DNA from: Vermamoeba vermiformis | Taxonomy: Eukaryota | Reading direction: 5' to 3' | Assembly: GCA_045837725.1 (NCBI GenBank) | Contig: JBEWZL010000093.1 | Span: 1-64,000 of the forward strand | DNA length: 64,000 nt | Part shown: positions 3,346-57,600 of the stretch, piece by piece | How positions within the stretch are numbered: the first letter of the stretch is position 1 | How the letters are laid out: each line of letters starts with the position of its first letter | Notes under the pieces: model-generated | The model's input: the letters and a program-made list of their open reading frames with translations, nothing else | Database searches by the model: none | What the model was told of the DNA's origin: nothing | Made by a program: the position numbers and the translations under genes

Positions 3346-3673
3346 GTTGATGATGTATTCTGAATAATAAGAATAACAAAAAAGGGGCACGTGCCAAGTA
3401 GCCTTTGCATGAAAAAATTTATCAAACTTGGTGTGCCAAGGCTGAACTCAACAATACACCGAAATATAAACTGTAGAACTAATATTTGATCACATTGTAT
3501 TCAGAATATGAATATTGTGCAACAGTGGGAGGGAGATGTCACGTCGTTTCCGGATTTGCGCAACCTATTCTGCAGCTATTCCCAAAACTAAATCAACCAA
3601 AAAATATAAACTATTATAAAATAATTTCTGCCTAATAACTGCACTATTAATAATATCTTTCAATCAAACACGG

Positions 3674-4480
3674 ATGGACAGAATACTAAAAATTATTGCC
3701 AATACACCTACTCCGCGAACAGTATCAACACTACTGCACGATATAAGAGCACTTGGAGTACTCCCTGGCGACACAGTTGTTGTGCACTCGAGTCTCTCTG
3801 CCATTGGATTTGTTGTCGGAGATGAAGTGGCCGTAATTCAAGCTCTGCAACAAGCAGTCACCGAGCAGGGCTCGATAGTCATGCCTGCATATTCATCTGC
3901 CATTAGCGATCCTGCGCTGTGGGAGAACCCTCCTGTGCCTGAAGCATGGTGGGACACTATTCGTAACGAGATGCCGTTGTTCGACCCGAGCTCTACTCCG
4001 CTTTACGGTCTCGGCGTAATACCAGAAGGTTTTGAATTTTTGTTAATGAGAAAAAATATCACTTGGTGCGCGTGGGGAGCACATGCCTCGAAGATCACGC
4101 AACATCATTCCCTGAGCTACTCGTACGGACCTAACACACCCTTGGGCACATTATACAACCACCCTAATACGAAGATTTTACTGCTTGGCGTTGATTTTGC
4201 GAGTTGTAGTGCCTTGCATTTGTCTGAAATTCTATCCGGAGTCGGGGCTGAGCGTCAGTGTGGAGCACCTGGATTGGACGACCAAGGCAAGAAGACCTGG
4301 ATTCAATACACTGACTTGGACTACGGTGGCGATGACTTTGCGCAGATAGGTCTAGATCTAGAAGCACAAACAAGTAGCGTGAGCACGGGTCCGATCGGAT
4401 CAGCAACTTGCAAGCTCGTGGATTTTCGTTCCTGCGTCGATTTTGCGACCGAATGGATCAAAAAGAATGGTAGTAAATAA
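3674..4480 (+). CDS. Aminoglycoside N(3)-acetyltransferase / YokD-like (Antibiotic_NAT family), apparently intronless
   Basis: 268-aa ORF with 'LGVLPGDTVVVHSSLSAIGFVVG', 'GSIVMPAYS', 'DPALWENPPVPEAWWDTIRNEMPLFDP' and 'ILLLGVDFASCSALHLSE', which follow the AAC(3)/YokD consensus. Confidence 0.88.
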   Translation: MDRILKIIANTPTPRTVSTLLHDIRALGVLPGDTVVVHSSLSAIGFVVGDEVAVIQALQQAVTEQGSIVMPAYSSAISDPALWENPPVPEAWWDTIRNEMPLFDPSSTPLYGLGVIPEGFEFLLMRKNITWCAWGAHASKITQHHSLSYSYGPNTPLGTLYNHPNTKILLLGVDFASCSALHLSEILSGVGAERQCGAPGLDDQGKKTWIQYTDLDYGGDDFAQIGLDLEAQTSSVSTGPIGSATCKLVDFRSCVDFATEWIKKNGSK

Positions 4481-7583: not shown

Positions 7584-9654
7584 TTACTTTTGATCCTTCT
7601 CCTTCCAGTTCTTCATCTCCATACCTTCAATCTTGATATTAGTACGTATTTTTACTAAATATGACGTCGCTAAGCAACTACTAACCCTTCGGAGCACTTC
7701 CTTCGACCTTGCCTTTGCCGACCTCATCCCAGTTCGTGGACAAGACGGTGCCGCCTGATTCGATCTTAATGATAACAATTAGTCAAGGTGCACGTGCTAC
7801 ATGATTTAATACGACTAGTAATGTACTTTAGAACAGAGAAAGTGATTTTGTGGATCTGATCGCGATCAGTTACTTACGAAAGATTTCATCATAGCTCTTC
7901 GTTGTTCGTCAGAGCCGTTAGCGTAGATAGATTGGAACACTTTCTGCAAAGCCTCTTCACCCTCGGGCTTCTCATCAGCTTCAGCCTCCTTAATAATGGC
8001 ATCCCAGTTCTTCTTCGGCTTGGGTGGGATCGGATTTGGTGAAGGTACAAGAGGTACGCTAGTTGTAGGCTTGGGCACGGTGGTAGGAGCCGTTGTTGTC
8101 GTTGTGCTAGTGTTGCTAGTGGGCGTGTTCATGGCGTTAATGGGCTTGGTCATCACTGTTGTCGCGGGACCCTTGGGCAACACAACGCTGTCCCACGGTG
8201 TAATGTTGGTGATGCCTATAAGACCATCACTTGTAAGTAACAGGCATTATGTATGCTCAAATACAATATTTCGAATGGTATTAACAAGATTGCGTTTGGC
8301 AACAGTTGGTTGAAACTGCAGGTCCGCATCCAGATTGAGCACGTACCTTCTACGCGTTCAAGATTGGCCCATCGGCAAGACTTGTCCTTCTTCAATGTGA
8401 TGTCGAGACGAGCGGGCAAGAACTTGACGCTGCTCTGTTCTGGAATGATAGTGCCGCAAAGGTCCAGATCTAATTGGTATTCAGTGCCTTCGGGCAACTT
8501 AATGGTAACTAGCAGCTATACGTACAATAGTTAGCACGGTCATATATTCAATATTTAGTCCTTAGTTAAGCAAGAAAGAAATATTTGAAAGTGTTTTGGA
8601 TCGTGTCAAGTACGTACTGAATCAGGCTTCATATCAATAGTGGTGTCTTCTTGTTTTAAATTCTTAGCGAGAATGCCGACGCTGACATTGTGTTCAGTTT
8701 GGAACCACTCGTGGCTGCCACAGATCCGTTAGCATGTCACGTATAGATCGCGTTCAGGCTCAAAAGTACGTACCGAATTCTAGGTTCAGGTTTATAATCA
8801 GCGACTGTTCGTTTAACAGGTGCCGCGGGGACAGCAGTGTTAGTGTTTTGAGGTGGTGCAGTAGTAGTCGGAGCGGATGGAGCGGATGGAGCAACACTGG
8901 AAGTGGCAGGTTTGGAAGGTTGAGCATCGCCGCCAGCTAATATCAAATAGGTAATTAAGCTACTATAATAACGCAAATATATTAAGAGGGAGATTTGGCT
9001 TAATTAGTTATTTATTGGTAGCAAATTACAAAGACATCTGAAGGTTTTTTTTTTTAATTTTGTTGCGAAGAAAGTTCTCTCTCCCTCTCTAATTAATTAA
9101 AATAATTTAATAATAGAACAATAGAAATTTAACGGTTTTTCATGAAGCAGATCGAATCTAACTTACCCTCTTCAAGTTCAGCGTCGCATTTTCGGCTCCA
9201 AGTCTTCAAGGTGCTATTGGTAGGTTCATATTCAAGACCCTTTTCGAACGAGGCCTTTGCGCTTTCAAATTCTTCTAAAGCAAAAGCGGCCATGCTAAAT
9301 TAATTTCATTAAATTAGAAAATATTTCTTATTTAATTCTTTATAATTAGAGAGGCTTACCCTTTTCGCAAATAAGCTTGTGGTAATTTAGGATTTAATTT
9401 AATAGCATTATTAGCGTCCGAAATGGCGTCTAAAACCAAAAGTCAATACGGGACAAGATCAAATCCAAATCCTGCTTACCTGTGAAATTCTTCAATTTAT
9501 AATGGCAAGCAGACCGCTTAATATAAAATTCGGCATTATCGCCTTCTAATTGAATAGCAGAATTATAGTGCTCCAAGGCAGTTGAAAAGTCTTCATCAAC
9601 GAATGCAGCGTTGGCCTTGTTGAAGATACTCTCGGCAGTCTCGAATTTGGACAT
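7584..9654 (-). CDS. SGT1: SGT1 HSP90 co-chaperone (TPR, CS and SGS domains)
   Basis: N-terminal TPR ('[22 protein letters not shown]...YIKRSACH'), CS domain ('RHEWFQT', '[17 protein letters not shown]...LDITLKK...WANLE') and SGS domain ('KKNWDAII...[43 protein letters not shown]...GMEMKNW'). Confidence 0.96.
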
Positions 9655-10005
9655 TACTGACTTGTTAGTGAAGGGAGTTGTGGACAGGTATTCAACACAA
9701 ACAGAACAAATCAACAACTAACGCAGAAAAATGACGTCATCACGCCGAACGAAATCTACAAACAGATCCTGGGACGCGAGATTAACGGCCCTTAAAGCCT
9801 TGAACTGAAAAGCTCAATATTTTTTGTTGAGTTGACAGCCAAATTTCTTCCTTTTGAAGCTAAAAGCTTCGCTGGTAAAGTACCTCAGCCGTATCCGCTA
9901 CCGGAGTCCCACATCCACCCACAGGCAGCGCTCCAAAACATGCAACCGATTCACGTTTTGAAATTCTCACAGGGCTATGGATCCACAGCGCAGTTCTTAC
10001 TATAA

Positions 10006-13000
10006 ATGGCAAGTAAGTTTTGGCAAGTCGCGCGCGGCTAAAGATAAATTTAAAACTGCATTCAAAGGCACTACCACACTAGGCCATAGTTATATAGTTA
10101 TATCATTTATTATTAAGGCCTAATACGGAGTCGCTGATGGAAAAAGAGAAGGTGGAAACAAATCCACGGTCTCCACCGGACCAGCGGCTTGCAGAAGTAA
10201 GTTAATACTACCGAATCGCATCATTTAAATTATTTAGCTCATTATACTGTATTAGAAACTGCTCAATGAGACGGAGGCGACTTTAAATCTGATTTTCGAT
10301 GATCTTCCCGACAAGAACATGGAGTCTATGCTCGTAGATAGCTTGTATCAGGTAATAATGATTCACAGATCAAAGCTCTATTTGAGTGATAGCCTAACTG
10401 CTGCGTGTAGTTTTACGAGACGCGTAAATCCGGAACTAAATTTCTGAACTGGGCTGTTCGAAGCGAAGTCGTTAACCGAGGTATGATGTCGATGATATAT
10501 ATCGATGCTCTAAGTTTGCCATTATATATATTAATATTGCCTTGATTCTAGAATTGCCCGAGGAACTGTTCAAACTGGCCACACCGACTACGCAAGTGAT
10601 GATGCATTTCATGTTTGACGAGCGCGGCGTTAATTTCATGAAGGTGCGTATCTCAATTTTCACCACCTATATTTAAAATCTCCTTATTCAAGTACAATAA
10701 TTAAAAATTGTCCGACCTAACGGAGTTATTATTTGGCACGAGGAAAATTAAATTTCAAATTTTGCAGGAGGTCCTAGTCCCTGTTATAAATAAAATACGT
10801 CGTATTGTCGACCGAGAACGAGAAAAAGAGCGAGATCTGCTAACGGCTTCGAGCTCATCTCGATCCTCAACTTCAACTTGGGACACGAGCGATTATTCGA
10901 TATCGGAGCGAGAAAGAGATGGCGATAGTATCTCGCAGTCTATGGAAGCCTTGGATATAATGAGCGAGATGAGCACTACTCCCGTAAGTTTTGATTAAAA
11001 AAAGATCTGCCGACAAAAAAACCCAAATTAATTATTTCCTTATTAGGAATCTTCTGTCAAAGAGGCTGAAGCAGTGCCTAACCCTGTCTTATTACTGGCA
11101 TGCGATGAGATCATTGATAACTTGCAAGAGAATTTGGCCTCGTTCCCATTGTACGTAACGTACCATTTCCATTTAAGGAAATTTCGCACCAGTGTCACGT
11201 GCTCTAACTCATTCATTTTTGCAGATTCATGCGCGAAGGATTGCTCACGTTGCACGAAGAGTGCATGAAGAAGCATCCCAAAGTCGACAACATTGTGCCC
11301 GTGGTGTTGTTTTTGCGCTTTATTTGTCCGACTTTGGTGCAACCGACCGTGTTTGGCCTATTAGAAGGTAAATATAACTTAATGACACTATATTTAGCCT
11401 GTTATCCACATACTTTAACTTATTTCAAATTATTTCAAATTGTGTTCGGATCAAGCTCCAGAGAGAAATTTTAGGCAAAACTTACATTTATATTAATTAT
11501 AATTGATTTTTGACGTATTAAATCTTCTTGCCAATTTTGGAAAGTTTTCAATAGTTCTTTCAGAATCGAGTACTAACGTCTTGTGTGCGGTGTGCGCAGA
11601 AACGTTGAGCCCAGCTGCGTTCCAAACGACGCTGTTAGTGACGCGCATCGTGCAACACATCGCGCTGTCGTGCTCATCAGAACTGAAGAAGAAGTTGGAC
11701 CCGAAACTGCCCAACAGACTCGACGACAAGGACGTCAAGAAGTACATTGAGAACAACACCGCTAAAGTCAAAGATTTTGCCGACAAAGTCATCGTAAGTA
11801 ACAAAGATATTACGGCTTATAGTCCTCGAAAATCATTAATTTAATTATTTCCTTTTTAGGACGGAGATAATATTGCGTTTTGTCGCAAGATGATTAACGC
11901 TTCAGTGAAACGAGTGGATCCGCCAAAAGAATTGCTCGACGAGACCTTGCAACGAGTGCACGATGTACTAGTGCACATTGACAAGGTGAAGCGACAAAAC
12001 AGGGCTGAGAGGAATAACAACGGCAAGTACTTGTCGGATCTGATTCCGCTCAACGTAGAAATTGCGGAATTATTGTCGCCGAGAGGCTCTAATGATCCCA
12101 CTGAGGTAATTACACTAAATAATTATGACCCAAAGCGCCTTTAAAATGAAATTTTTATCAAGTTTATTTTTGTACTTCCGCAACTTATAACTGCAGACGT
12201 TACTTTCCTTTATATGGTAATACTGGGTTCAGGAGTGAGTGCTAATTGTCCTATTTTTGTGCAGAAAAAGCCGTCAGCCTCAGATCGCGATGTGGTCGGT
12301 TGGATCCCGCCTTGGGTCCGTCGTCGTACACTACAAGACATTGACGGCGTGCAATACACATTTGGCGATGTGATGGCCGAAAATGGCAAGACCTGTCTCG
12401 TGCTCCTGCGTCACTTTGGGTGGTACGTTCACTGAAAACACGTGTCAAAAGTGTCATCCTCACGATACCTTTGCATTTTCAGAGTGACGTGTCGGAGATC
12501 AGCGGACAGGCTGACTCAGATCCACAGCTATTTTCAAAGGCTGTAAGTACCGTTAGATTTCCTAGTAAGGCAAAAAAAAACTGATCTGCTCGATTTTCAT
12601 GAACAGCGAAAATTCATTGTTATTTCGAGTGGAACGATACTAATTTGGTTATTTTCCTCTTACAGTGGTGTGCATCTTGTAGCGATTGGTTCAGGAACTG
12701 CAAAGATGGCGATGGATTTCAAACAACGACAAAATTTTGCTGGTCAGATCTACGTCGATCCGTCGAGGACAATCTACGACGATTTGAACTGCAAACGCGG
12801 CTGGAAAGCTGTACGTAGAATTAATGGACGGACTATATCATTTTTTTTACTGATTCGTTTTTTAGGCACTGTTCAATATGAAAGTTCTCAAGTCCGTTAA
12901 AACAGCGTTCAAAGAGGGCTACAGACAAGGCAAGACGCAAGGTGACATGACGTAAGTACTCAACAATGGCACGTGCTTGCCAAATAAGGAAATATGCAAG

Positions 13001-13533
13001 ACATGCCTTCTCGAGATCTCATTCTTACAGTTGGTTTTGACAGTCAAAACGGCGGTCTGTTCGTGATTGAAGGCGGAGATCGCGTGCTGTACGAACACGT
13101 GGAGGCATTTGCAGGCGATCATCCAGACCTCAAACACGTGTTGACGGCGTGTGGGGCCAGCGAGGACATGTTGAGCGAGTATCAGCGTACGTATTCTAAA
13201 TAAGGATACTCATTCAATAAGCGAACATTGAACATAACCTCGTTCATGAAATCACGTTCATTTTCCAAATTTAGTAAAGAACAATCGTGCTGGAATTAAA
13301 TCCCATCGCACCTTCATTATGAACTGCTAATTTTTTCACGTGGAGATGTGGACAGATATTAATGTTATTTTTGCCTTGTAGTGAACATCGTGACGCCAAA
13401 ACAAGTGAAGCGTGAAGCGAAGAAGAAAATGAAAGATCAAAAACGACTCGAGAAAGAGGCGCACAAACAGCGCATGAAAGAGTACAAAGAGCGCAAGAAC
13501 GCGTTGAAGAAACAGCTCGACATTAAGAACTAG
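10006..13533 (+). CDS. RasGAP-like domain fused to an AhpC/TSA-2 (SelU/SelL/PRXL2-like) thioredoxin-fold domain with in-frame UGA (probable selenocysteine), then a Lys/Glu-rich tail
   Basis: RasGAP-like exons: 'FLNWAVRSEV..ELPEELFKLATPTTQVMMHF...GVNFMKEVLVPVINKI' and 'VLFLRFICPTLVQPTVFGL'. A phase-0 intron 12106-12264 joins these to 'KKPS...TCLVLLRHFG'. Intron 12423-12482 yields TG|A, giving RHFG-U-VTCRR. Later exons encode 'GVHLVAIGSG', 'IYVDPSRTIYDDL', 'GDMTQNGGLFVI' and 'AGDHPD'. Last exon is 13382-13533. Confidence 0.8.
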
Positions 13534-13794
13534 ACACTATTAGTATTTATTTATTATCAATATCGATATTATTATACTTGTATTATATAGAGGTGAAGCA
13601 CAAGTGGAGGTTTCGCAAGATGGAAAAGAAGAATTGAAATTTTTGCAAAGTCTCGCATCCATCGCTACGCACACAAATGAGACTTTGCAAGAATTCTATT
13701 CGTGATCTTACCGAAGATTTTGCTACGAACAGCGTTGGATTGCCTTTTATGGCAACTCGAGCGGTCTGATCTTTTCAACCTTTGAGGTCGGATC

Positions 13795-13862
13795 TGCTCG
13801 AGCGATAATTTCGTGAATGACCGAGACTGAATTAACTCACCCCTCATCGGGATCATTGAGCT
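13795..13862 (+). promoter_or_regulatory. Candidate eukaryotic SECIS element in the 3' UTR of the UGA-containing gene
   Basis: ATGA at 13817-13820 and GA at 13851-13852 form the AUGA/GA core. Flanking GTGA/TCAT, CGA/TCG and TGA/TCA can pair, with apical unpaired AA (13830-31 or 13834-35). It lies about 280 nt after the stop codon and before AATAAA at 13955-13960. Helix II is imperfect by eye. Confidence 0.5.
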
Positions 13863-14019
13863 TCAGTACTCGCGACAACATCACCCAAATTTGGAATTAT
13901 CTCTGACGCTCTTGTCGCGGATTTTTGTAAGAAAAACATCCGTGCGAGATCTCCAATAAAAGCTTCTTACGATAAGTGATTCTTATTAATATTGAAAATG
14001 CATTTTACAGTTGACATCG

Positions 14020-14235
14020 GGGAGAGCAAAAAGAGGAACCGAAGAGGAAAGAAGGAGCCAAAAGGAAAAACACCGCGAAAAAAAAGAGAAAAAAAAAGGG
14101 AAAGAGAAAAAAGAACAAAAGAAGAAGAAGACGAAGTGGAAAAAAAAGGGAGAGAAGAAGAGAGACGAAAGAGAGGGGAGGGAGAGTAAGGAGCGAAAAG
14201 TTATAAGAAAAGTCTTTTTGAGGGAATTGGGGGGT
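14020..14235. repeat. Low-complexity purine (A/G)-rich tract
   Basis: Almost only A and G on the + strand with long A runs. The Lys/Glu/Arg-rich ORFs in two frames are compositional. It may be low-quality sequence. Confidence 0.6.
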
Positions 14236-14354
14236 TGCAAGTTGCTTGTTAGGAACATTCTAACATGACTGCGTAATAATAAAAGAAAGACGGTACTGCG
14301 AGTTTGTTTTCAAATGTACATGTTATTTTAGTTTAATTAATTACAACAAACGAT

Positions 14355-17122
<2,768 letters not shown>

Positions 17123-17288: not shown

Positions 17289-19720
17289 TTAATAGATTAC
17301 TAATAATAAAGTACAACAGATCAGGGCTTGCAATTGTCCGACAGTGATTTGGATCGAGTCGCTCGTAGCTTTTTTACCAGGAGATGCTGCTGGAGTGCCA
17401 CCATTGTTCGGCGTAGTACCATCAGACCCCTGTAACGCTTGTTGCAAAGCATCAAAGTCCACACCTGGATCCGATCCGTCCGAAGCTTGACCTTTGTACG
17501 GCGAATCATCAGCCAATCTATAATCATCACCATTATAGTCCTTAAACTTCACGACACTAACGCCAGTGCTATTATCTCCCGGCCAGAAATTTCCACTTGG
17601 AAATCCAGGCTCGTACATCGCCTTATCGCCATCGAGGGTCGTAATAATTACATTGTGCGTAAATTCGTAACTCGGATTCGGAATTTCCAAAGCAAAGTTA
17701 TTCAATAAGTCAATAGCAGTAGTTAGTGTATTAGACTGGACTTGTGTCGGAAGATAATCAGGCTCTGACCAACGGATCCCCGCACCTCCTCCAGCATCGC
17801 CCTTATTAAGCCACAAAATATTGTCGCGCATAACTAACCCATTTTGTGCGGCATAAGAGCCGTGCAAAAAAGCAGGGCCAGTGCCTTTCGGATAAATAAT
17901 AGTGTTGTGTATGAACTGAATGTCTTCGCCTCCCAGAGCCAACGCCAATATTTGACCGCGAGTAGGACCGTATATATTATCAGCCCAGTGCAGTGCATTG
18001 ATGTCATAGAACAAATTGTTTGCAATCAAATACCGAGCTGAAACTTTGGTACTGCGATAACCTAAAACAATTTTAATGAGTATTTTTACTAATAAATTTG
18101 AACAATTGTCTGCTTACCGACATCGTCTTGACCAGTGATTTGAATGCCACCACTACCGTGTCTGAATATATTATGGCGAATAGTAACGTCGGAAATTTCG
18201 GCTTCGTTCGTCAACGGAAGATTTTCTGGAGCTCGGGGAGTAATAATAATTGCTTGACCGCCTGATAACGTCGACCAATAGCTCTCGATGATATTTCCTT
18301 CGAAAAGAACTCTTCTGCCGCGCTTCAACTCAATTGGTCCTCTAACATCACGAGATCCTGCTCCATCGTAGGTATCAGATCCAGGTCGGTGCAGTTCATC
18401 GTAGGAAAAGATATTCCGTCGAATCTCAAAGTCGTCACGTGGGAGAGTAGGATCATCGTCATTAGCAAACAATAATATTCCGCTGCCACGAATAAAATTG
18501 TCGGTAACTTTGAACGGGCCTGCGCGACCAATGATGTTGATGGCTTGAGACGTCGTAGCGCCAGCTCGAAAATCAATAAGTGACCCAACCACAGCCATGT
18601 AGTTGCCACTCATTGACAATGTTGACCTAAGTTCGGCGGTATTGACTTTAGGGTTCCTAAGTATGCATCGATCAAAAGTGATCCGCTCATTTTCTCCTTC
18701 GGCAAAAACTAAACCGCTAATATAAAATATGTGCTTAGCAGGCGTAGTAAATTCGATGCCTAAGAAGTACAAGCCGACTTGACCGGTCATATAAACGGCT
18801 GTTCCGCCCAATCCGCCAAAATTAGGTTTTCGAGCCAACCAGATTCCACCATTGACGTCATAGCAATAGTAAAGTCCATTCGATTCATAAGGGATGTAGA
18901 AATAATAGTCGCCGATATTGCACTGACCTGTTGGAATGGTCTCTCCCTTGTTTTGGGTGATTTCAGTTAGGGATCCGCCGTTACAAATAACGTAGTATTT
19001 GTTATTCGTATCATAATAAACCTTGCCTTCTTCGCAAGTTGATCCAGGTGCGCCAAAGGTAGCGGGAAGTACCGTATTGTAGATCTTGGCCATGTTGGAC
19101 GCGTAAATATCTTGATCTGCTGGATCCATTCGAGTTTTGGGAGGAGGCAACGAACTAACGTCTGATGATCGAATTAAGATAGTACCGCTACGATTTTGGG
19201 GCGTAATAAATTCTACGGCAGCGCAAATAGCACCAGAAGGAATGACGATCTCGTGGTTCAAGTTTGGATCTTCTTGCAATACCAACGAGTACTTCGCTTC
19301 GAGATCGGTGCAGAAATCATTGACCTGAAAGGTCTTGCCAGTTATGGTAGGAACTTCTACTTCAAACATTTTCGGCAAAGTTGGCGTTGACGACGAAGAT
19401 TCGGATGTGGTCAGCTGTTGTTGGTCGGAACAAGCCGATTGATCGAGACATATTCTAAAATACGTTACTGAGTTCGGAGCCATGCCAGTGATAACAAGAG
19501 CACCCGTAGTTTTGCCGCCGGGCACTGATTTGGGTAATGATTTGAATCCGTAACTTGTTGTGGGTCCATATTCGACGTAATATGTGCCAGGTGTGTCTGT
19601 TGTCCAACCAATTCTAGCAGAGGAATGGGAGATGCCGTTGACTAACACATCTGAGATTACAAGAGCAGCGGAAAGATTGGCCAAACATAACAACAGTCCA
19701 AATAGTAAATTTCTCTCCAT
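17289..19720 (-). CDS. Secreted or surface protein: N-terminal Fn3-like domain, right-handed parallel beta-helix, C-terminal hydrophobic (GPI-like) tail
   Basis: Two long ORFs are joined by one 56-nt intron (18062-18117). Signal peptide MERNLLFGLLLCLANLSAA; 'SARIGWTTD..GTYYVEYGPTTSYG'; beta-helix turns 'IRRNIF', 'IELKRGRRVLFEGNIIE', 'DVTIRHNIFRH', 'IANNLF', 'FIHNTI'; 'DYRLADDSPYKGQASDGSDPGVD'; ends 'LICCTLLLVIY'. Confidence 0.8.
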
Positions 19721-20111
19721 ATTTTATGAATTAATCTTGCTCGCTGTAATTTAAATTATTTTAATACAGATCTAATTTTGGATAATTTTGGAAGGGTTCG
19801 ATGAATCGGGCACGTGGTGCATAACAAATTTAGATTACAACGAAGTTAGTACGTTTTGTAATGCGTTCTTATTATTGAATTTAAATCTAAAATTCGAAAT
19901 CAAGTTACTTTGGCTTGGATGGACCACAAAAACTGCTCTTGTGCTGGATCTACTTTTGATGGATGAGTGACTTCGATCACTGGTGATCAATGTAATACCT
20001 ATGAAGATTTGGTTTGGTGGTGTCCAGAACTGCCTGGTCAAAAAATAATGAGAAAACCCATTCCGCTCAGTTAACTATTTTGCATTATCTTTTGCACAAA
20101 TACGACAACAA

Positions 20112-29177: not shown

Positions 29178-29413
29178 GCAGTGTGGCTGTACAATAGAAA
29201 AACGAATTTTATTTTACCAAAGTACGGTAACATCACCACAGGTTATTTTGCGAAAGTGCAGCAGTCCTATTAATTGCATGACGTTATATCTGTGGTATTA
29301 TTATAGGTAGTAATGTAAACGACGCAGAGTTGTGATCAGATCCTTTTTAAAAAACTCTGACTACCAAAATTTTAGAAAATTATAGAGTTGACACAATTTG
29401 CTAAGGTCACAAT

Positions 29414-30184
29414 ATGGGAAGCAAAGAAGCAGCGTTAAAAATATTTTTAATATTTTCTGTAATTTATTCGTGTTCTTGTGCCGGATGGTGCCCAGATGTT
29501 CCTCCAAACACTCTGTCAGACTTAGAAATGGATGCAGGTTGTGTTTTATTATTTAATGGTGTTAACCTGGATGGTTGGAAGTATTTACGACCGTTAGATT
29601 CAAACTGGACGGTACGAGACGGAGTTTTGACCACATCTCACTTGCCACCGAACAGAAAACCAGGAGCTTTAACAGACATAGCTACGACAACTAACTTTAC
29701 TGAAGGTATATTTAAATTCGATTGGCGATTGGATCCTGCAGGTAATAGTGGTGTAAAATTCTTTTGCGATCTGGATGCGTTGTACCACGAAACCCCGAAT
29801 CGCAAGCGTAGCGCTGTGTGCCCTGAATATCAAGTACTCGATGACAATGGCTTCTTTCCTGACGCCTGGTACCCTAATCGAACAGCTGGAGCGTTGTACG
29901 AGTTGATCCCGCCGTTCAAACACAAACCACTGAATCCGATCAGCGATTGGAACTGCGGTGAAATTCATACTGATGGCGTATACACGGAATTTTGGATGAA
30001 TGGAGAGTTAGTGGTCACTTTTGATCGTTATTCTGACCACTTCAGAAAATTGGTCGCGAGATCCAAGTACAACCCGAAGACTTTTGGCTTAACCGCTTTA
30101 TCTCCACTCGTATTGCAGGATCATGGCCAGGCTGCTTATTTTAGATCTGTTAAATATTGTCCTGTAACCCAGAAAAGACGCTGA
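29414..30184 (+). CDS. Secreted DUF1080 (3-keto-disaccharide hydrolase-like) protein, intronless
   Basis: 256-aa ORF with signal peptide and 'LLFNGVNLDGW', 'WTVRDGVL', 'GNSGVKF', 'EYQVLD', 'AGALYEL', 'WN.GEI', 'LQDHG...YFRSVK'. Confidence 0.88.
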   Translation: MGSKEAALKIFLIFSVIYSCSCAGWCPDVPPNTLSDLEMDAGCVLLFNGVNLDGWKYLRPLDSNWTVRDGVLTTSHLPPNRKPGALTDIATTTNFTEGIFKFDWRLDPAGNSGVKFFCDLDALYHETPNRKRSAVCPEYQVLDDNGFFPDAWYPNRTAGALYELIPPFKHKPLNPISDWNCGEIHTDGVYTEFWMNGELVVTFDRYSDHFRKLVARSKYNPKTFGLTALSPLVLQDHGQAAYFRSVKYCPVTQKRR

Positions 30185-46111: not shown

Positions 46112-48520
46112 ATGGCCACACCTGTCACTAACTCCACCGCAGCTCCGATCGTCTACACAGCTGACGGCGCTGACAATGCTTGGGTGCTCGTAAGCTCCGC
46201 GCTTGTATTTCAGATGATTCCTGCGCTTGGCTTGTTCTACGGTGGCTTGACTAACTCTAAGAACATTTTGAATACTATCATGTTGTCTATGGTCTGCGCC
46301 GGCATCATTTCCATTCAGGTAACTCAATAATTTCGGAGCTCGATCCACCATTTGATTTTCATCAAATTAATTGCAAATAAGATGATGTGATGTTTTAGAC
46401 CACCGTTAACAATATGACGGGCCTATCCGTTGCACGGATGCGGTTCCGTTAAGCTGACGATCTCGTAACATTATTTTAACGATAATTTTATTATTAGTGG
46501 CTCTGCTGGGGTTACACCTTCGCTTTCGGTCCAGGTAAGCAGTGATAACAATATTGCATTCCTAGGTCCTTTTATTTTATGCATAATTTTGGATGTCTCT
46601 TTCAGTTAAGGAAATTAACTTTTATCACTAAAAATGGATGTAGCTTCGCTGCGACGTCCGAAGTGCAACTTGTTTCGTGCCCTTGGTTAATTGAATATTA
46701 CTCATAATTTTCCGAGCTGTTTTATTGTTTAGACCTCGTGTCAAAGCTTCCAAATCACTCCGAGCTAAATCCGGAGCAGATGCGACAAATACTTGCAAAT
46801 ACCATTGAAATCACACTACAGTGCTTATTACATAATACTAATATCGATCAACATTAAGGTTTAATTTTAAATTTTTTTATCACTAAAAAGATTCTCTGGT
46901 TGCAAGCATTGCTCATCCGGAAATATTTTATTAATACAATTATTATTTTTAGGCAACAGCGTATGGGGTGATTTCACTTACGGTGGCTTGAAGGGTGTTG
47001 GAGCAGATCCCAATCCGGATTACGCTCCAACGGTATCACATCTCAACTTTTGCTTGTTCCAAATGATGTTCGCGGCCATTACTCCAGCGCTTATTTCTGG
47101 TGCTGTTTTGGAGCGCATGAAGTTCTCTTCGTACGTTATCTTCATCTTTGTGTGGTCTACTTGCGTCTACGATCCCATCGCGCACTGGATTTGGTCTGCT
47201 TCGAACGTGACTCACCCTGATGACCCCATGAATGTCGTAAGTACCTTAAGTGCATATCTAGTACATATATTAATGCGCTACAGGGCTGGTTGCGCCAATT
47301 GGGCGTGGTTGATTTTGCGGGAGGCATTGTGATCCACTTGACGGCTGGATTCAGCTCAATTATTGCCACACTTATCATTGGCAAGCGTCGCAACACTCCT
47401 CAAGAGAAGATTCACGCGCACAACATTCCGTTCGTGCTCATCGGCGCTGGCTTGTTGTGGTTCGGCTGGTTCGGTTTCAACGGAGGTTCAGCTGGTGCAT
47501 CCAGCAGTGTTGCCGTGCAGGCCGCGTTCAACACTCAAATTGGAGGTACGTTTTTAATTCCCAGTATTCATAGTGTTAATATTCACCTTTGCTATCGTCA
47601 CAGCTGCCATGGGCATGTGTGTTTGGATGTTGCTCGAAGTCATTTTTACGCCGCACCACAAAGTCACCACAGTCGGTGCTGCCACTGGCGCTATTGTCGG
47701 TCTCGCGACGATCACACCTGGTGCTGGCTACGTCACCTCTCAGGCTGCTCTCGCGTTCGGCTTCCTCGGTCCTGCTTTGACTTTCTTGACCACTCGATTC
47801 AAGCACAAATTGGCCTACGACGACGCTTTGGTAAGCTGAGAACGCCGTCGATGAACAACAAATCACGTACTAACCATTCTGTTCTCAATTAGGACGTGTT
47901 CGCTGCTCACGGTATCGGTGGTGCTACTGGTGCAGTGTTGACCGGTGTCTTCGCGACCACTGAGGTTAACACCGTCAGCGGTGCTGTCGACGGCAATGGC
48001 ATGTTGATTGGTGAGTATTTATTGCTAGTGCCTGTAGTTATTCAATCTAATGTGACCTCGTTCAGTCTGGCAAATCGTTGCTTGTGGTGTGGCTATGGCA
48101 TTGAGTGGCTTGATCACTGCGGTCACTTTGTTGATTTTGAAGGCTACTTTGGGCTTGCAAGTCAGCGAGAACACCGAAGATCACGGTCTCGACAGCAAAT
48201 ACCACGAAGAAGAGGCTTATCACCTCGGTGAGCCCTTGGTCGAATTGCACTCGGAGTCTTCATCCACCACGCCTTCGCATAGTGGTACCAGCCCCACTCT
48301 CGTCAACTCGCAAGATCATTTGTTGAAGAACAACGTGCAGGCTCAACAAAGCAACAGCCGTCCTGTGGTTAACGCTGGCACGAAACAGGTCACCCAACCG
48401 GTCGAGTCTAGCAGCCAAGAGCAAAGCGAAGAGCAGTCGAGTTCACAACAACAAAGCAGCTCACAACAATCTTCGAGCAATCAAAGCTCTGAAGAGGCTT
48501 CTGATTCCTCAGACTCGTAA
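46112..48520 (+). CDS. amt: Ammonium transporter (Amt/Mep family) with Ser/Gln-rich C-terminal tail
   Basis: 'DNAWVLVSSALVFQMIPALGLFYGGL', 'FQMMFAAITPALISGAVLER', 'YDPIAHWIW', 'DFAGGIVIH', 'LLWFGWFGFNGGS', 'GLATITP' and 'DDAL.VFAAHGIGG', with both pore histidines present. Confidence 0.97.
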
Positions 48521-48615: not shown

Positions 48616-51600
48616 CTAATTCAACACAGGAGCTAATTTCGGGTGCTTCTTCGCTGCGGTCATGAGTTTATCAAACAGCTTGTCCAGCGTTGCAATACGA
48701 TTGTCAATCGCGTTCTCAAGCTCCGCAACTGCGAGTTGCTTCATGCCTGGAGAGCCATGACGATTGCCAGCTTCTTCAATCTTCTTCTCGATGGCCTCGT
48801 TCTGCGTGTCGAGAATTTGTTGGTATTTGACGAAGTGTTGGCGGATCTGTGCGGTGTACTTCGTCACTTCCTCCGCGACTTCCTTGATTTTCTTTTCTTC
48901 TTCGAATTTAAGATCGAGACACAAAGCCTTCATCACAGGCACAAAGTTGAAGTCTTTCTGTGCGATCTAACATCAAAAGGTAAATATTAGACAATCGCAC
49001 ACCGAGATCGATCAACGCACCTTATCAGCTACGTATTGTTCTGGTCCCGTGTATTCAGTACGATCTTTTCTTCGCAGGTACATGTTGAAGTTCAAGTAAT
49101 GCCATAAATTGTGATCGTGGAAGATGTGTTGTTCAAAGTCATAGCCTTGTCGCTCAAACACGTCGCGTTGAATGCCACACATGAAGCAACGGTTTTGGTT
49201 GTCTTCATCAAGCATTTGATTCTCCGCGCGTAACTCTTGGAACGTGTCAATGATAATACCAAAGATCAACTTCAGCAGGATGACAATGATCAAAATGAAG
49301 AACGACAGATCGTAGACGAGACGCCACGAGTACTGCGGACTAGCAAATGAATGGGGCGATAATAGACCACCAAGACCTCCGCCAGTACGAAGTCCATAAT
49401 TGAACACGGTCACGAGGCACATGGCCAGTGATTGGCAGATTAGCTGGTCGTCTTGAATGAAATCTTCACGGAAGAACAAGAAGCCCATGATGGCGTAGAT
49501 GTACAGTACCACGGCAGAGAGTAACAACTAATCCAGGTCAGTGGAGTACTTCAATTGGGGCAGGACTTACCGTGAGAATGATCGACTTGATGTTGACTGT
49601 CACGGATCTGATGACTTCTTTGAGTAGAGCATTGCGTACCACGAGATCAAGTAAGTGGAATGCGAAGAAATAAGGATTGCCTGCGGGCAACAAGAAGACG
49701 CCTAACACGGCACACAGCACGTAGCAGAAGTAAAACGGCACTCGTCCCGCGCTGAGGAAGTGAGCGGCAGTGAAAATCACGTTCTTTGTGTTCTTTGCGT
49801 CCAGTTCCTCCCACGAGGCCTGGTGAATGTTAATACGGGACTTAACAACAAATGAGTTCTACTTACTCCTCGCTCTCGCCATCGCTTTCTCTGCTCCAAT
49901 TGTCCATCGCTCATTACATTGACGTAAAAGATTAACACGGCGCCGGCTATTTGAAGCAAGCCAAGTAATAGCAAGCCAAAGAATGCCAAGTAAGACGTAT
50001 TAAATGCATCCGAGAAGGTGATCGATAAGTTGATGATGATCGAGAGCAACAGCGATGCGTTCAGAATATTTTGTTCTTCTTTTGCAACGCGCGAGAAAAG
50101 ACTGTTTTGTGCGAGCTTTTCTCGGTGGGTCATTTCTTCGAGCAAATCTTCTGACCGTTCGTAGAAATCCTGAATCTTAGTCTTCTGTGATTCGCGATTG
50201 ACTTGACGAATGAGATCCTCTTTTGACTTGAGCGGCAAGTTGTGGCATACAGGAAGAACTCTGAAATAGACTCGCTCGATGTTGTTGTTGCGTACAATTT
50301 CAACGCTTGCTGAACTTTTCACAAAGAAATTATCGTGGGGAATGGATTGCACCAGCTTTTCCAACTACGAGCGAAACGTTAGAATAGGTAAACGGCGTTA
50401 ACTAGCAAACTTACTTTGCTGTCCGAGTCGTAGGACTCTAACGTCTTGAACAAGAAGTAGAGCAAAAACCCTTCGTTGATGATTGTTTCAGTATGCTCGT
50501 CAACCTCGGTGTCTTCAGTGAGATTAGACTCCACGAATCCGCTGACGAGTTTGAAGTCTTTGAGTAGCTCATCAAAGTTCAGCGAGTTCAGTATGTGCCG
50601 AGGGATGGCAGGGCTTGTATTGCCTTCCAGTAAACTCAACAGAGTGATGAGCATCGACTCTTTCAGCTTGTTAATCTTCGCGTGCTCTACATTCAACGTC
50701 TTCAATCTCCAAATGTAGTTGATGGACTCGCAGAGCTTTGTGCGACTCAGCGTGATTTGATTCTCCGCTGAAGGTCCTTGGCAGTATTCAGTCAATGTCG
50801 CGAAGAGCTGAATGGCGATGTCGATGTTGTTCTTATCGATGCCGCCTTCCAATGACTCCAAGCAGGCTGCTGTCTCGCTGATCAAATCGACGCTCTTTGC
50901 CGAGTACGGTTGCAAGCGCAACAAACTCTGCAGCTCAAGATTGTGACCTTCGCAGAGCAGCTGCAAGAATCTGAGAATTTGCTTGATGAAACCGCTATCT
51001 TTCATTTGCTTCTCTTCAGTCTGCTGTTCAAGTGCGGCTTCAGCGATGGACTTTCCAGTGAGTGAAAAACCAAGGCTAAAAGCGGAAACGAGCGCATTCT
51101 TTCGTTCTCGTTTCTGAGAATGAATTTTGCGCTCTTCAAGGTCTTCCAGCAGCTTTCGCATCCTGGTTCGAATTTCTACGAACAAGTCGCAATTAGGATT
51201 GCTTTTGAACGTGATGAGTATCTCGGTTTGCACATGTTTGTTGCCACCATGCAGGAGCGCTATGCCGAACGAAAGAACTTCGTGAACTATGTTGCTATTG
51301 GGTACGTTGATCAACCGGAAGATTAATTGCGTCGCTCCGAGATCGTTGAGTTGGCTCTGATATTTCTCTAGAGCCTCATTTGATGCGTCGATTAGGCCTT
51401 CTAACATAGTGCGTAGTGCTCTCACGGTCATGAGAATGCTCGAGTTGAAGTCTCCGCTCTTAATAACATCTTCTGAGCACACGACTTCAATCAACTTGCG
51501 CAAGAACGCAGTGTCATTGGAGTCGAGATTATGCTTAAACAATTCGACTAAACGAGCTGATTCTTTTTCGTTGGTGAGAGTTGAAGAGCTGAGCAACAGT

Positions 51601-54600
51601 TAGTTATGACTTCTTGAAGGAATGGTTGGCTTACCAAAAGGCATGGAAATTCTTTAAACTAGCGTGCAAGTACTGTTCCTTGCTGAGTAATTTCTTTGCC
51701 GAGAAGCTACTGAGAAAAGCTGCCACTCGATCCTCTTGCTTTTCGTTTTCACGAGGAGTTGCTTGGATCTCGTGCGCAAGAGCTTCAATTGCTTTGACAT
51801 CGCCTTTAGCAGTCAAATTCTTGCTTTTCATTGCCTCGAAGCAAGTCTTCAAAGTGAAGGCCTCTTTGCTCGCGAACTCTCCTTGCAGCGAAGATGCTAA
51901 CTCCACCAGATGATGCGAGATATTGTGGCAGATATCCTGGCGAATGGCATCCAGTTTTGACTTCGTGGAGTAGAACGAGTCAAAATAAACGCGAAGGAAA
52001 GGCAACAGCTTGGTAAAAATGAACGGTCGAAGTTGCTTCTCCAGGCGCCTACAAAAGCATTAGTGTAAGCTATTCGTTTCGAATTATTTAATAATCGGTA
52101 CCTTTCAAGCAAAGCTTTGATCTTTTCTTGCTTTTCTTTCTCTTTTTGTTCCCGTTTGCGTTGCTTTTCCTCGTGTTTTTGTTGCTTCAGCAACTCTTTT
52201 TCTTCTTTTTTCTTTTCTTTGGCCAACCGCTTCTCTTCTTTCTGGTGCTCCTTTTCTTCTTGTTTTCGTTTTTTGGCTTCATCTTTATCTTTTTTAAGCT
52301 TTTCTTTCTCCGCTTTAGCGATTGGTTTCTTTACTTTCTTTTCCGGCTTTTCCTCATCGTCGCTTTCGGATGCCGAGCCAGACTTTGACTTGGAACTAGA
52401 TTTGGACGAGGCACTCTTAGCGTCTTCGCTATCACTTTCGGACTTCGATTCATTGTCGGATTCCTTTTCTGAGTCACTTTGGTCACTTTCTGACTTACTT
52501 TCTGATTCGCTCTCTGATTCGCTCGAGCTACTCTCCGATTCACTTTCAGATTCGCTTTCGCTTTCGCTGTCACTGTAACTGGCCGACTCATCCGAGGAAA
52601 ATTCCTCTTCCGAGCTGCTGACGTCATAAACATCTTCTGCTAGTTCGGCATCTTTGTTGGCACCTCGTGGTCCGTATTCTTTCACTCGCTCGATAAACAA
52701 ACGCAGAGACTCCTCAGCACTTTGAAGGATTCTCCATAACTGGCTAGAATTGTCGATGTGCTTGATCTTTCGTTCTGTTTCTAAGAATCCTTCAAGAAAC
52801 AGGGACAGAAACGCGCCGCGAATAGGCGCCCAATTGCTCATGTCTGAGATTTGTTCCACAATCGTGTTGACGTCAAAAATGCTCTGGCACTTAATTTCAG
52901 CTTCGTAGATCTTTCCTTGACAAATTATTGCGAAGAGCTCGATAAGCTTGACGCAGTACTGCATTTCTGAGTTTGTTTCTCGATAAATACGCTCATGCAT
53001 CATTTTAGATCTGCAGTTATTAGAAATGTTTAACACAATTTAAAGTGTGTTTACCTTTTGCTAACGAGTTCAGGATTGTCGTAAATTATAAGCACCGATT
53101 TTTGTTTTTCTGCAAGCAAGTTTGCGAGCAGTATTTGGTTGCGACGCAATGGAATATTGTTGATAGTCAGAATAGTCTGATAAAGATTAGAAAACAAGCG
53201 TTAATTAGTAGCAACTGCTGTAACTCACATGCAACACTTCAACATAGATCGGTAGTTTGACCTTAGCCATTTGATTCAACACTTTGCGGACGTGTGCTTC
53301 CGTTATTTGCAAGCAAATATCGCGATTATTGTGAATTATTGCGATGAGCAGCTCGGAGACTTTGATTGTCAAATCAATATCGTCGATATTCTCGAGCAGG
53401 AAATCAATGTGATTGAACATCCTTTCTTGATTTTCCGCATTGTTGCGACAAAACTAAGATAACAATTAGTACCAGTTGCGGTGACTTAAAAGTTCAGCTT
53501 ACTCTTTTCAAGAATTCAAGGCATGAATTGAGCACTTCCGTTCGATCAGAAATCTTTTTCACCTTCATGATCTTAATGACAGCGTCGTAGACCTTCAAGT
53601 GATTGAAGATTTTTTGATTCTCGAGGTGTGACCGATACACATCACCAGCAAGACTCGTCATTTGTTTGAGAATGTCTTTGAGGTCGTAGAGTTGCCGCTT
53701 GAACTCCGTAGCCATTTGCTTTCGAATGAAGCTCATGTATTGCCGTACTTGGGTGTACGTTGCCACAAACTTCTCGTCGGCAAGTATTTGAATCTTGGAC
53801 TGCGCCTTCAGCAACTCTTTTTCTTGTCTACTTTTTGATTAGTACCAAACACTGATTTAGAACGGAACTTACGTAAAATTTCTGATAAGTAAGTTGGCTG
53901 CAGCACAAGACAAACGCGTGTTCGAGTTCGATACTAAACTCATCAACAACGCTAAGTACTCTGGTGTCATTAAGTGGTATTCTTTCATCACCGCCTTGAC
54001 CTGGGGCGCAGTACTTTCATCGAACTGCGTGGAGTCTTCGTAGTACTTCTTCGTCTTGATATCAATGTCCGATATCTTTGACTTCGCTGTTTCCAATAAA
54101 TAGGTCAAGCGTCGGTCGATGCGGTAATCGTAAAAGTAATCCAACATGGTGCAAACGGTTTCTTTTGATTCTTCGTCATTATTAGGATCACTGAGGATTG
54201 ATAGAAGGAACGGCAGCAGTTTGGCTACGTCGTCGTGTGTAAATAAGCCGATACTGAAGACTTGCTGGCATAAAAGCAAGACCGTAGACAATAGCTTGTC
54301 TTGCCCACTGTGCAAGTACTCAAATACAAACGTCTTCAGCTTTTCGAGGTCGAATTGCATGAAAGCTAAGCATGCTTAGTAAAAAGCGACAGCTAAGGTC
54401 GAAACTTACATGATATAGAGCTTTGCGACAAAATAGTATCGCCGCCCGTTGACCTGATGTTTTGTTGCAAGTTGGACCAGAGCTAAAATATATTAGCCTT
54501 CGAAATTTCAAATATTGTTTTTAATGCTTACTCGAGTATAGTTAATGAAGCTGACTTGTTTAACGGTGCCTTGTTTGATGCTAACTTCAATTGCCGCGAA

Positions 54601-57600
54601 TATAAGCTTGCCCATCGAAATTCTAAAAATAGGTTAGAATTTGTCGTTTAAGAGTAGTTGGGCGAACCTGACGGGTCCAGGTAACTGATTGTCTGCCAAT
54701 CCAGCCAAGGCCAGTAATAGATTGTACTTGCGAAGTACCAGCGCACCCGTAGTTACATTACCACCGTAACAAAGGTGTGCGAGCAGGTTGATGAAGTTTG
54801 TCATGTAGTCAAGCAGCTTAGGGTTATCAGTCAAGTAGGTGGCCAATTCAGTCCATTCCTTGTTTGCGGTCATCACTTTTAAGTAAACTCCGGACACACT
54901 CTTTTCATGTTGCGGAACAGTCGGCTGAAGGAAAATGAGTTACACGAGCAGCATGTACTAAACAAACACTTACTCTCGGAGAAAACAGGTTGCTGCGTGT
55001 CAAAAACGAAGTTGCACCCAAGCGATCGGTCAAAGAATCTTCGTTTGAGAGTTTTAACATTATGACCGCATCGTTGTTGTCAAGGAGCATTCGCGCAATC
55101 ATAATTTGATTACGTGGTATTGATTTTCCCAAGCACGTGCACATCGAAGATAGCAGTGTGAAGTACCTATCTAATGGTAAAACGATTGTAAAAGCGCACT
55201 GATGACGTACCTGTTGGACTTGGCTTTGTTTTCTGCTATTTTGTTTATCAAATTTCGTATTTGGATTTCGGAAATGCGTTTCAACAAGTTTTTGTTGTCT
55301 TTGATCAATTCGATGTACGTTGATGTGCCTTTAATCGACAATGCGATCTGTAATAGGTCAGTTTTGATTTTATGAACGAAATGACTTACGTTTCCTTGAA
55401 TAAGCATAGCGTACTTCGAGGCATAGTTCTTGTTTAATTGGTTGTCGACAAAGATCAATCGCAGCAGAATGTTAATGTAACGGCACAATGCCAGCAGCGC
55501 ATGATTTTCCGGTCTCTTAATTTCTTCGAGTTTGACTTTGTCATTGGCGAGCGTAAGATAGAGGTATTGAATAAGTACATCAATGATCTACGAATAAATG
55601 GTTATGAATGGCCTAAATTCGGTTGCATGAGTTACTTACTCCTTGTTCGCGGAACAAGTGCTGAATTTCCTGAACGGGAGAATTTAAATTTTTCAGAGTT
55701 TCGTACGCTACTGTGCCCAAATCCGTGTGCTTCACAGGGTTAACTTGTAAAATCAATTGTTGCAGTATCTTATCGATTGATTTGGCTTGTACTGCCATTG
55801 GTGCAATCTCCTCGCCTGCACTGGACACGAGCCTCTTCGCCTACTCAAATTAGCATTATTGTCAACGCAATCCTGACTTACTTGCTCAAGGTGCACTTTC
55901 AACTCCCGCAGCCTTCCGTGTAGCGTATGGAGCGCGGCAACTTCACTATGTTTCACTTTTATGACAGCAAATACATCTTTGTCCTCGAATGTCGACACGC
56001 CAGTGATCTAACCGACCTATTAGACATTATGACCATAAGACTCTGAACTTACGCTGAGACTTTCTTCTTCTCCTTTCCGCGTGCACAAGATTTCTTGTTC
56101 GGCGTGTAGCCAACACTGAGACTTGTGATGCCTAATACGAACAAATGAACCGAATTTGACGTTTTCTGCTACCGAGGATCCCAGAGTAATCGGATGAAAA
56201 GTGAACAGAGTATTGGGTGAATTAGGCCCATCGCACGTGGTTAGCTTGATGGTTTTGCTGCTCGACTCCTCCATAATAGTTGCAAGAGAAAGTTGAGGTA
56301 CTGACGTGCTCATCTTTGGTTGAGTACGTGCCATTGTGGACCGAGATTGACTAATACTGTCGTCTTCCTCAGCCGTTAAATATTTGCCAGTAGCAACGTG
56401 GCGCAGGCGATATAATTTTTCAAACGTGGCAATACCACCTAAATAGTGTGCGTTAGTCACGTACAAAACCATAGTTGCACTACTTGCCTCGAGTATTGTT
56501 ATCGAATTCTACCTCCCAAAGCGAGTTTGAGTTCGTGTAGTTCGTGCGCCGCTTGGCACTTTCGAGGCAAACTGTGTGGAACACTTAATAACATACTAGT
56601 ATTAACGAAAGCACTTACCTTTTTCGAACGACTGCGCGTTTGAGTCAAAAAATCTGTCCAAATTGAACACGGAGTCGTTTCTTATTAACGAGCTGCTCGT
56701 GTCAGTTCTAAGGGACTTGGCTGACGAAGACAAATCAAATGAGGAACCACTTCGTGACAAACTGCCTTGTGAGCTGTCGCCGTCACTGTTATCATCCGAC
56801 GACTGATCAGACTCTTCATCGGTTTCTCTTTTTGCCGAAGAAGTCAGTCGCGCATTCTTCTCGAAGAGTTGTCGCTCTTCGCTGTCATTCAAAAGATACG
56901 CCTCGATTTCTTGGTGAAACAATCTTATGGTGTCTCCAGCCTTCAAAAACTCTTCCTCAAGCGGTGAGTAATGGCTGTAAGGTACGACACGCCAACCAAC
57001 GCCAGATGGATTGCTTGAGGCATTAATTTCGCTCGCATTTTCCGCTATTAATTATTAGCTCCAACTACTTGAGTGGCTATATCGCAACTTACTTCGCGTG
57101 AGATGAACGCCCAAGTTTGGAAATCGTTTGCTCTCCAGCACAATTTGATCACCCATAGCAACGGGCTCGCCTTCAGACCTCATCTTAAAGCGAGGAGACA
57201 CAACGAACCTATTTTATCTGTCAACAATAGCTCGAGCAATTCCTACGGATACTTACCAAGACCCTTCAGTTCCATCGGGCTCTAGTACCACCTTCAAGCA
57301 ATCTTTCTCGAGGTTTGCCATTTCTTTGACGGATATAGTCACAAAGTGGCCGCTTTTCACGTGTTGGAGCTGCACAATTTGACCGTACACCACTGGCTGG
57401 CCGGCGACATTTTGACATTCGTGAATATTTTCGTCCATTTCTGTTAGTGCTGCGTCACGCAACTTCTGCAAGTCATTGCTGGCGTGTATTTCACTACTCA
57501 CTCCGAGCAGTGTAGCGTTATTGTGAACCTCGTTAAACTGCTTCTGAGCATCGTATTTAAAGCGAGGGCAAACACGAAATACGCAAGCTGTGAAGTATTA

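Follow-up and report, generated by a model that had tools for sequence, protein, structure and literature searches.

The window analysed here is a stretch of 64,000 nucleotides from Vermamoeba vermiformis (GenBank assembly GCA_045837725.1, contig JBEWZL010000093.1, positions 1 to 64,000 of the forward strand), and all coordinates refer to it. On its plus strand lies a gene in which a region resembling the GTPase-activating proteins (GAPs) of Ras is followed by a redox domain of the SelU/PRXL2 type. The coding sequence (CDS) of this RasGAP-like/SelU gene runs from 10137 to 13533 and consists of 15 coding exons separated by short GT..AG introns. Its spliced translation comprises 654 codons and ends at a TAG stop, and the frame is open except for a single in-frame TGA at codon 460. 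The reading favoured here, with a probability of roughly 0.7, is that this is a single fused gene for a 654-residue two-domain RasGAP-like/SelU selenoprotein.

The exon boundaries follow the joints of X1, a set of Logan contigs labelled "RNA?" that are about 97% identical to the window. X1 contigs remove all 15 introns, 14 within the CDS and one in the 5' untranslated region (UTR) at 10012|10068, each at GT..AG ends, and X1 depth is zero in the wholly intronic or intergenic bins 9761-9921 and 11371-11531. Because the introns are missing, X1 is treated as derived from spliced RNA. A second source is P0003, a Logan open reading frame (ORF) that corresponds to spliced exons 12-15, the Lys-rich tail included. 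The features of the gene are listed below; Sec denotes selenocysteine and SECIS the selenocysteine insertion sequence.

9898-10012, plus strand: 5' UTR exon (X1 joint 10012|10068, loose end at 9930; 5' end unmapped)
10068-10196, plus strand: exon with the CDS start ATG 10137, coding part 10137-10196 (X1 joints 10012|10068 and 10196|10256)
10256-10351, plus strand: coding exon 2, N-terminal RasGAP-like part (X1 joints, translation)
10411-10480, plus strand: coding exon 3 (X1 joints, translation)
10552-10643, plus strand: coding exon 4, with LFK (K83) at the expected arginine-finger motif (X1 joints; motif by eye)
10768-10983, plus strand: coding exon 5, a Ser/Asp/Glu-rich insert within the RasGAP-like domain (X1 joints; no Pfam match)
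11047-11150, plus strand: coding exon 6 (X1 joints, translation)
11225-11367, plus strand: coding exon 7, RasGAP signature FLRFICPTLVQP (R244) (matches to Pfam PF00616, SynGAP 3bxj and RASA1)
11600-11793, plus strand: coding exon 8, C-terminal RasGAP-like part (joint in X1 record 2; no Pfam match alone)
11860-12105, plus strand: coding exon 9, linker ending in NDPTE (X1 joints, translation)
12106-12264, plus strand: intron 9, phase 0, 159 nt, the fusion junction (X1 joint skipping 159 nt, GT..AG)
12265-12422, plus strand: coding exon 10, where the SelU/PRXL2 domain begins, its last bases being the TG of the Sec codon (X1 joints, translation)
12421-12483, plus strand: UGA (Sec codon) interrupted by intron 10, TG at 12421-22 and A at 12483 (residue 460, motif HFGUVTCRR)
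12483-12542, plus strand: coding exon 11 (X1 joints, translation)
12666-12810, plus strand: coding exon 12, AhpC-TSA_2 core (Pfam PF13911)
12866-12951, plus strand: coding exon 13 (X1 joints; spliced in P0003)
13044-13186, plus strand: coding exon 14, end of AhpC-TSA_2 (Pfam, X1 joints, P0003)
13382-13533, plus strand: coding exon 15, Lys-rich tail and TAG (joint 13186|13382; same tail in P0003)
13813-13884, plus strand: type-II-like SECIS candidate (helix I 13813-16/13881-84, AUGA 13817-20, UUAA 13832-35, GA 13874-75)
13955-13960, plus strand: AATAAA, probable poly(A) signal (sequence; read coverage stops before 13947)

The fusion of the two halves depends on intron 9. A reading made earlier from the sequence alone (the sequence-only reading) had joined the RasGAP-like exons to the thioredoxin-fold exons across this intron, and each of the elements it named is in place: the GAG|GT donor, in which the exon ends at 12105 and the GT occupies 12106-7, the GCTAAT at 12241-46, the CAG at 12262-64 and an ATG at 12214 that lies in frame inside the intron. 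Splicing of 12105 to 12265 leaves the frame open with one TGA as the sole exception. The splice itself is seen in a 775-nt X1 contig (record 3, word depth 7.33) that covers exons 8 to 13 in succession and at 12105|12265 leaves out exactly 159 nt. Thus the fusion junction is present in RNA-derived sequence, and both halves belong to one spliced ORF as had been proposed.

Two observations weaken this evidence. Raw RNA reads of a relative with 90-95% identity (X8-X10; 46, 11 and 30 reads placed) confirm four or five other junctions of the gene, and their depth is zero over 12176-12336, leaving 12105|12265 uncovered. Since these reads give no depth there, the junction is supported by one contig from a single run, and the RNA nature of that run is a guess from its label. 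The same interval accommodates a different arrangement, the main rival to the single gene. A RasGAP-like gene with its end at the TAA at 12142-44 would be the neighbour of a stand-alone SelU gene starting at ATG 12214; read-through transcription and splicing would join the two now and then, and the conjoined mRNA would be a minor product. The length of intron 9 is a multiple of 3, read-through of the donor reaches that TAA within 12 codons, and ATG 12214 opens a hydrophobic 17-residue leader that continues in frame into exon 10. The genome is compact, with a divergent upstream gene about 270 nt away, and many homologues of the redox domain are stand-alone proteins of about 130-240 aa. In addition, close relatives are represented in the Logan and JGI gene calls by ORFs of the SelU part only, and no relative of at least 145 aa containing exon 9 was found. 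These missing long calls are weak evidence, however, since ORF calls on short contigs end at the UGA or at the contig ends. Against two genes, the sole transcript evidence across the interval is spliced, the gap from stop to ATG is only 69 nt, no AATAAA or ATTAAA was found in intron 9 (12106-12264), and the homologues nearest by sequence and in the tree have several domains and long N-terminal parts. The two-gene arrangement is considered unlikely. An extra SelU-only transcript starting in intron 9 may exist.

The upstream half of the fused protein had been described as RasGAP-like, and exon 7 bears this out. Its 47 residues match the Pfam RasGAP family PF00616 at E=1.1e-4 over profile positions 144-183 of 207. 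Among solved structures in the PDB, SynGAP (3bxj) is the best match at E=5.7e-4 and three RASA1 chains match weakly; all of the alignments span the signature block. Thus a single 47-residue piece gives E<1e-3 in two independent libraries with 27 residues aligned over this block. The segment FLRFICPTLVQP agrees with the published RasGAP signature FLRXXXPAXXXP (PMC12871552) at 5 of the 6 fixed positions, the difference being A to T. Judged from the sequence, residues ~20-330 would be a divergent RasGAP-related domain in which the FLR signature is kept and a Ser-rich segment is inserted, and a predicted linker of ~80 residues connects it to the SelU domain. Around the catalytic arginine finger of RasGAPs we take the consensus to be LFR, its R being the finger. 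A Q-x-[LI]-A block in exon 8 resembles what is presumably the third RasGAP signature (by eye), and it is collinear with the LF[R/K] block.

The RasGAP assignment has several points against it. The exon 7 score of 22.6 bits is below the gathering cut-off of 28.3, and being that of a single exon it is a lower bound for the domain. In an exon-by-exon scan exons 2, 3, 4, 6 and 8 gave no Pfam match even at E<=10, and exon 4 gave no match in the PDB. The exon 4 motif reads LFK, placing K83, 161 residues before R244, at the presumed finger (by eye against the assumed consensus rather than by a tool alignment); Arg 69 and Arg 75 lie near K83. Because of the Lys at the expected arginine-finger position, the RasGAP-like domain may be a binder rather than an activator of its GTPase. 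These same features would fit an N-terminal half that is no functional RasGAP homologue at all, being a lineage-specific helical extension with a retained or convergent FLR-like motif in a long SelU protein such as P0012 or P0122. Exon 7 is alone in matching, the finger position holds Lys, and the N-terminal regions of other members of the SelU subfamily are unrelated or undetectable. Such a reading has to account for the exon 7 matches in both libraries and for LF[R/K] and Q-x-[LI]-A blocks that stand in collinear order (by eye, against the assumed consensus), and it is judged quite improbable.

The downstream half is better defined. Exon 12 matches AhpC-TSA_2 (PF13911) at E=2.3e-9, with 38 bits against a cut-off of 27, and the relatives P0003 and P0002 score 54.6 and 40.8 bits with the same family. 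A word-indexed search queried with exon 12 retrieved three gene calls from relatives of 96-97% identity, P0003 and P0002 among them. At the TGA position P0002, a JGI call equivalent to exons 10-12 after splicing, carries W. The best solved relative of P0002 is human prostamide/prostaglandin F synthase (PGFS; 9us9), and through this alignment the TGA position corresponds to Cys44 and the following Cys to Cys47; by the title of entry 9usa, these are the two residues mutated there. The redox centre of the window's protein is then U460-x-x-C463, in the motif HFGUVTCRR, at the PGFS Cys44/Cys47 position. For residues 311-480 of the homologue P0027, its C-terminal domain, the AlphaFold model gives block-mean predicted local distance difference test (pLDDT) values of 88-97, and the top Foldseek match of this domain is 9usa (E=4.8e-10, template modelling score 0.82 normalised to the target). 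A thioredoxin-like fold is accordingly modelled for the homologue and predicted for the SelU domain of the window. The identification of the downstream half as a SelU-type thioredoxin-fold domain, made in the sequence-only reading, is upheld by the PF13911 match, and the PGFS alignment puts the UGA at its catalytic Cys.

The conclusion that UGA 460 is decoded as Sec is held with high confidence. An HMMER search with P0003 gave 580 matches at E<=1e-3, of which the best 150 were examined. In an alignment of 164 proteins the TGA column is covered by 51, and these have Cys in 48 cases, W in 2 and S in 1. Among the 150 best representatives, 22 have their start 1-7 columns past the TGA column with no more than 5 leading residues, a typical start being MFCRE, as expected of gene calls that are cut at a UGA or restart after it. 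Two proteins, P0002 and P0080, have Trp at the catalytic Cys/Sec column; this Trp is probably a TGA read through an alternative code, which would make them hidden Sec forms. TGA terminates other long ORFs in the window.

If UGA 460 were instead a true stop, translation would yield a RasGAP-like protein of 459 residues, leaving the SelU exons as untranslated remnants of a decayed gene. The UGA falls exactly at the catalytic Cys column, and the frame past it stays open for 194 codons in five exons, in which the near-invariant residues of the family are kept. Among the differences listed, the substitutions downstream of the UGA are overwhelmingly synonymous in two relatives: 6 of 6 changed codons in exons 10-14 against X1, and 10 of 12 in codons 501-636 against X8-X10. 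In exons 8-9, upstream of it, 6 of the 8 listed codon changes against X1 are non-synonymous. These properties are opposed to a decayed gene.

The 3' UTR, which extends to about 13980, contains a SECIS candidate at 13813-13884, 284 nt past the stop codon. Its minimum free energy fold has a 4-bp helix I, a 10-bp helix II with one bulge, an unpaired UUAA and a helix III, and the unpaired AA lies 13 nt beyond the AUGA. The SECIS core used by SECISearch3 comprises UGAN/KGAW, apical A's, helix 2 and an optional helix 3 (PMC3753652). An ad hoc SECIS pattern was found at 3 sites in 128 kb. The other two, at 60443-60517 and 48190-48263, both on the minus strand, lie antisense within plus-strand coding exons and are probably chance matches. 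The candidate is located inside a conserved and expressed stretch, the only one in the 3' UTR that has reads of the 90-95% relative; these diverge just before 13791, and three of the listed substitutions agree with the fold, two being in the loop and one changing U-A to U-G.

Other properties of the stem-loop speak against its being a SECIS. Two substitutions of the relative, which may or may not be compensated, fall in helix I, the 3' core is a non-canonical CGAC where KGAW is expected, and the fold z-score is only -0.92. Rfam recognised no SECIS at E<=10 in 9000-15500 or in 13534-14000, and at gathering scores it reported nothing in the whole window. The Rfam result and the non-canonical core are also the points in favour of a true stop at codon 460, which is nevertheless regarded as very improbable in the face of the conserved SelU frame. 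Two other foldings were rejected. One, with the GA at 13851-52, has a perfect AUGAC/GGAU core, but its helix 2 is ~6 bp with -3.2 kcal/mol and three of the relative's substitutions hit the core or helix I; the other, at AUGA 13677, gives a multibranch fold. The 13813-13884 model is thus the one retained, with moderate confidence.

The sequence-only reading also proposed that termination or Sec insertion at the UGA would yield a GAP-only or a full-length isoform. Termination upstream of introns favours degradation of an mRNA by nonsense-mediated decay. Since four introns lie downstream of the UGA and favour such decay, a stable GAP-only isoform produced by termination is doubtful, and a selenium-dependent switch between GAP-only and full-length forms is speculation.

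The combination of RasGAP with AhpC-TSA_2/SelU, which had been put forward as undescribed, was not found among the papers listed in full-text literature searches (supplements were outside their scope), those on RasGAP with selenoproteins being judged by title or abstract. Likewise, full-text searches for RapGAP with AhpC, for SELENOU with GTPase-activating, and for PRXL2/FAM213 with RapGAP or RasGAP gave no relevant paper among those listed. The combination therefore seems to be undescribed. Among related proteins, 28 were scanned with Pfam: 26 longer matches or cluster members together with P0002 and P0003. None of the 28 (0/28) has RasGAP with AhpC-TSA_2.

A different GAP does recur in this set. 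AhpC-TSA_2 is joined to Rap_GAP in 8 of the 28 proteins, seven from the 150 best representatives and one cluster member. P0034, P0056, P0104, P0024/P0162, P0026, P0110 and P0142 have this composition, mostly with an N-terminal PH domain and some with KHA or a kinase. Their sources are EukProt entries for the Amoebozoa Soliformovum irregulare and Cavostelium apophysatum, one MMETSP transcript, and JGI contigs or metagenomes. The redox domain of the window has its highest identity, 47%, to the Rap_GAP protein P0162. A FastTree phylogeny of 68 domain sequences places every multidomain form, that of the window among them, in one group of 24 rows with SH-like support of 86, and a group of 35 rows of short proteins stands apart with support of 95.

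In six further proteins (P0012, P0017, P0019, P0027, P0099 and P0122) the redox domain is C-terminal, as in the window, behind 270-500 residues to which no Pfam family is assigned. These N-terminal extensions are not demonstrably RasGAP, which detracts from the fused-gene reading: two of the six are plainly of low complexity, and searches of Pfam and the PDB with P0027, P0099, P0017, P0019 and P0012 did not find RasGAP. The N-terminus of P0027 is collinear with window residues 21-116 at 12.5 bits only, which is suggestive and not proof, and the ESM Atlas held no usable match for it. The AlphaFold models of the N-terminal halves of P0027 and P0099 are all-helical, at low confidence (block-mean pLDDT mostly below 70, range 31-74). 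Because the extensions of these relatives are not demonstrably RasGAP, the RasGAP-SelU fusion may be lineage-specific. Homologue searches with exon 9 and with exon 10 returned nothing, the one return of a metagenome scan was L001, a distantly related SelU-like gene truncated where its contig stops, and scans of genome contigs and viral contigs returned no relatives.

Compared with known systems, the redox domain resembles SELENOU/PRXL2 (FAM213) in its PF13911 match, its thioredoxin-like fold and the site of its redox motif. To our knowledge the described SelU/PRXL2 members are single-domain proteins of ~200 aa, whereas in the window the redox domain makes up the last third of a protein of 654 residues, with a RasGAP-like domain in front of it and a Lys-rich tail behind. 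Among algae, Sec forms of SELENOU occur widely (PMC7539508). The same report describes algal selenoprotein fusions, SELENOM-pVHL, SELENOM-ShKT and GST-MSRA, with support from expressed sequence tags (PMC7539508). These are a precedent for domain gain by selenoproteins, and none of the three includes SELENOU or a GTPase regulator.

With the RasGAP family (RASA1/p120GAP, SynGAP, NF1) the upstream half shares the FLR block and a size close to that of a minimal GAP domain. The usual C2, PH, CH and Sec14 partners are absent from the window's protein, and a Sec redox domain is present instead. IQGAPs have Thr at the finger position (PMC12871552), and the window's domain likewise seems to be devoid of the catalytic Arg; the two differ in having YYR versus FLR in the signature and Thr versus Lys at the presumed finger. 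The PH + AhpC-TSA_2 + Rap_GAP proteins contain the same redox subfamily, again joined to a GAP for a Ras-family GTPase. Their GAP, however, is Rap_GAP (PF02145), which differs from RasGAP in fold and family, it follows the redox domain in the chain, and all are Cys forms.

A mechanism can be proposed for the fused selenoprotein. UGA 460 would be read as Sec with the aid of the SECIS-like stem-loop in the 3' UTR. The RasGAP-like module would dock onto a GTP-bound GTPase of the Ras/Rap type, probably as a weak or inactive GAP, and the tethered Sec oxidoreductase would sense the peroxide or thiol redox state and thereby control the interaction with the GTPase. Alternatively, the tethered oxidoreductase may act on the GTPase itself or on its neighbours.

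That the same redox subfamily was fused independently to RapGAP in Amoebozoa makes a chance fusion less likely and supplies candidate partners. A broader proposal, tentative and rather improbable as it stands, is that the PRXL2/SelU-type domain is a recurrent regulatory module of Ras-family GAPs, joined to a RasGAP-like domain in the window and to RapGAP in Amoebozoa and further protists, through which the peroxide/thiol redox state, and here selenium supply, would gate the inactivation of Ras/Rap directly. If true, small-GTPase signalling would receive a redox input through its GAPs, one so far undescribed. The cellular roles of SelU/PRXL2 proteins are poorly defined, and the fusion, taken as a "Rosetta stone", predicts that they act on, or are controlled together with, a Ras/Rap-type GTPase pathway. 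The protein would also be a rare case of a selenoprotein with a signalling domain, and selenium availability, acting by way of UGA recoding and mRNA decay, could determine how much of a GTPase regulator is present.

The 5' end of the gene differs from the sequence-only reading in one respect. That reading placed the start of the gene at 10006. After the observed 10012|10068 splice the ATG at this position opens a 20-codon upstream ORF, and the long frame begins at ATG 10137, the first in-frame ATG past the stop at 10095-97. The spliced 5' UTR (9940-10127, plus strand) has three short upstream ORFs, starting at ATG 9940, 9977 and 10006 and consisting of 21, 16 and 20 codons, respectively; these could influence translation of the RasGAP-SelU mRNA. 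The divergent neighbour on the minus strand starts at ~9655 (9500-9655) and has an N-terminus that is TPR/SGT1-like by eye. Only about 270 nt separate it from the part of the RasGAP-SelU transcript mapped at the 5' side, a spacing suggestive of a short bidirectional promoter.

Elsewhere in the window there are long single-exon ORFs that look bacterial by eye: an aminoglycoside-3-N-acetyltransferase-like ORF at 3620-4480 (plus strand), a secreted FN3/beta-helix-like ORF at 17289-19723 (minus strand), and a DUF1080-like ORF with a signal peptide at 29405-30184 (plus strand). Horizontal acquisition of these three is possible. A large gene of the RyR/IP3R calcium-channel type, with a long acidic insert rich in Ser, Glu and Asp, occupies ~49012-57051 on the minus strand, and its 406-aa exon groups with RIH_assoc clusters in the Atlas.

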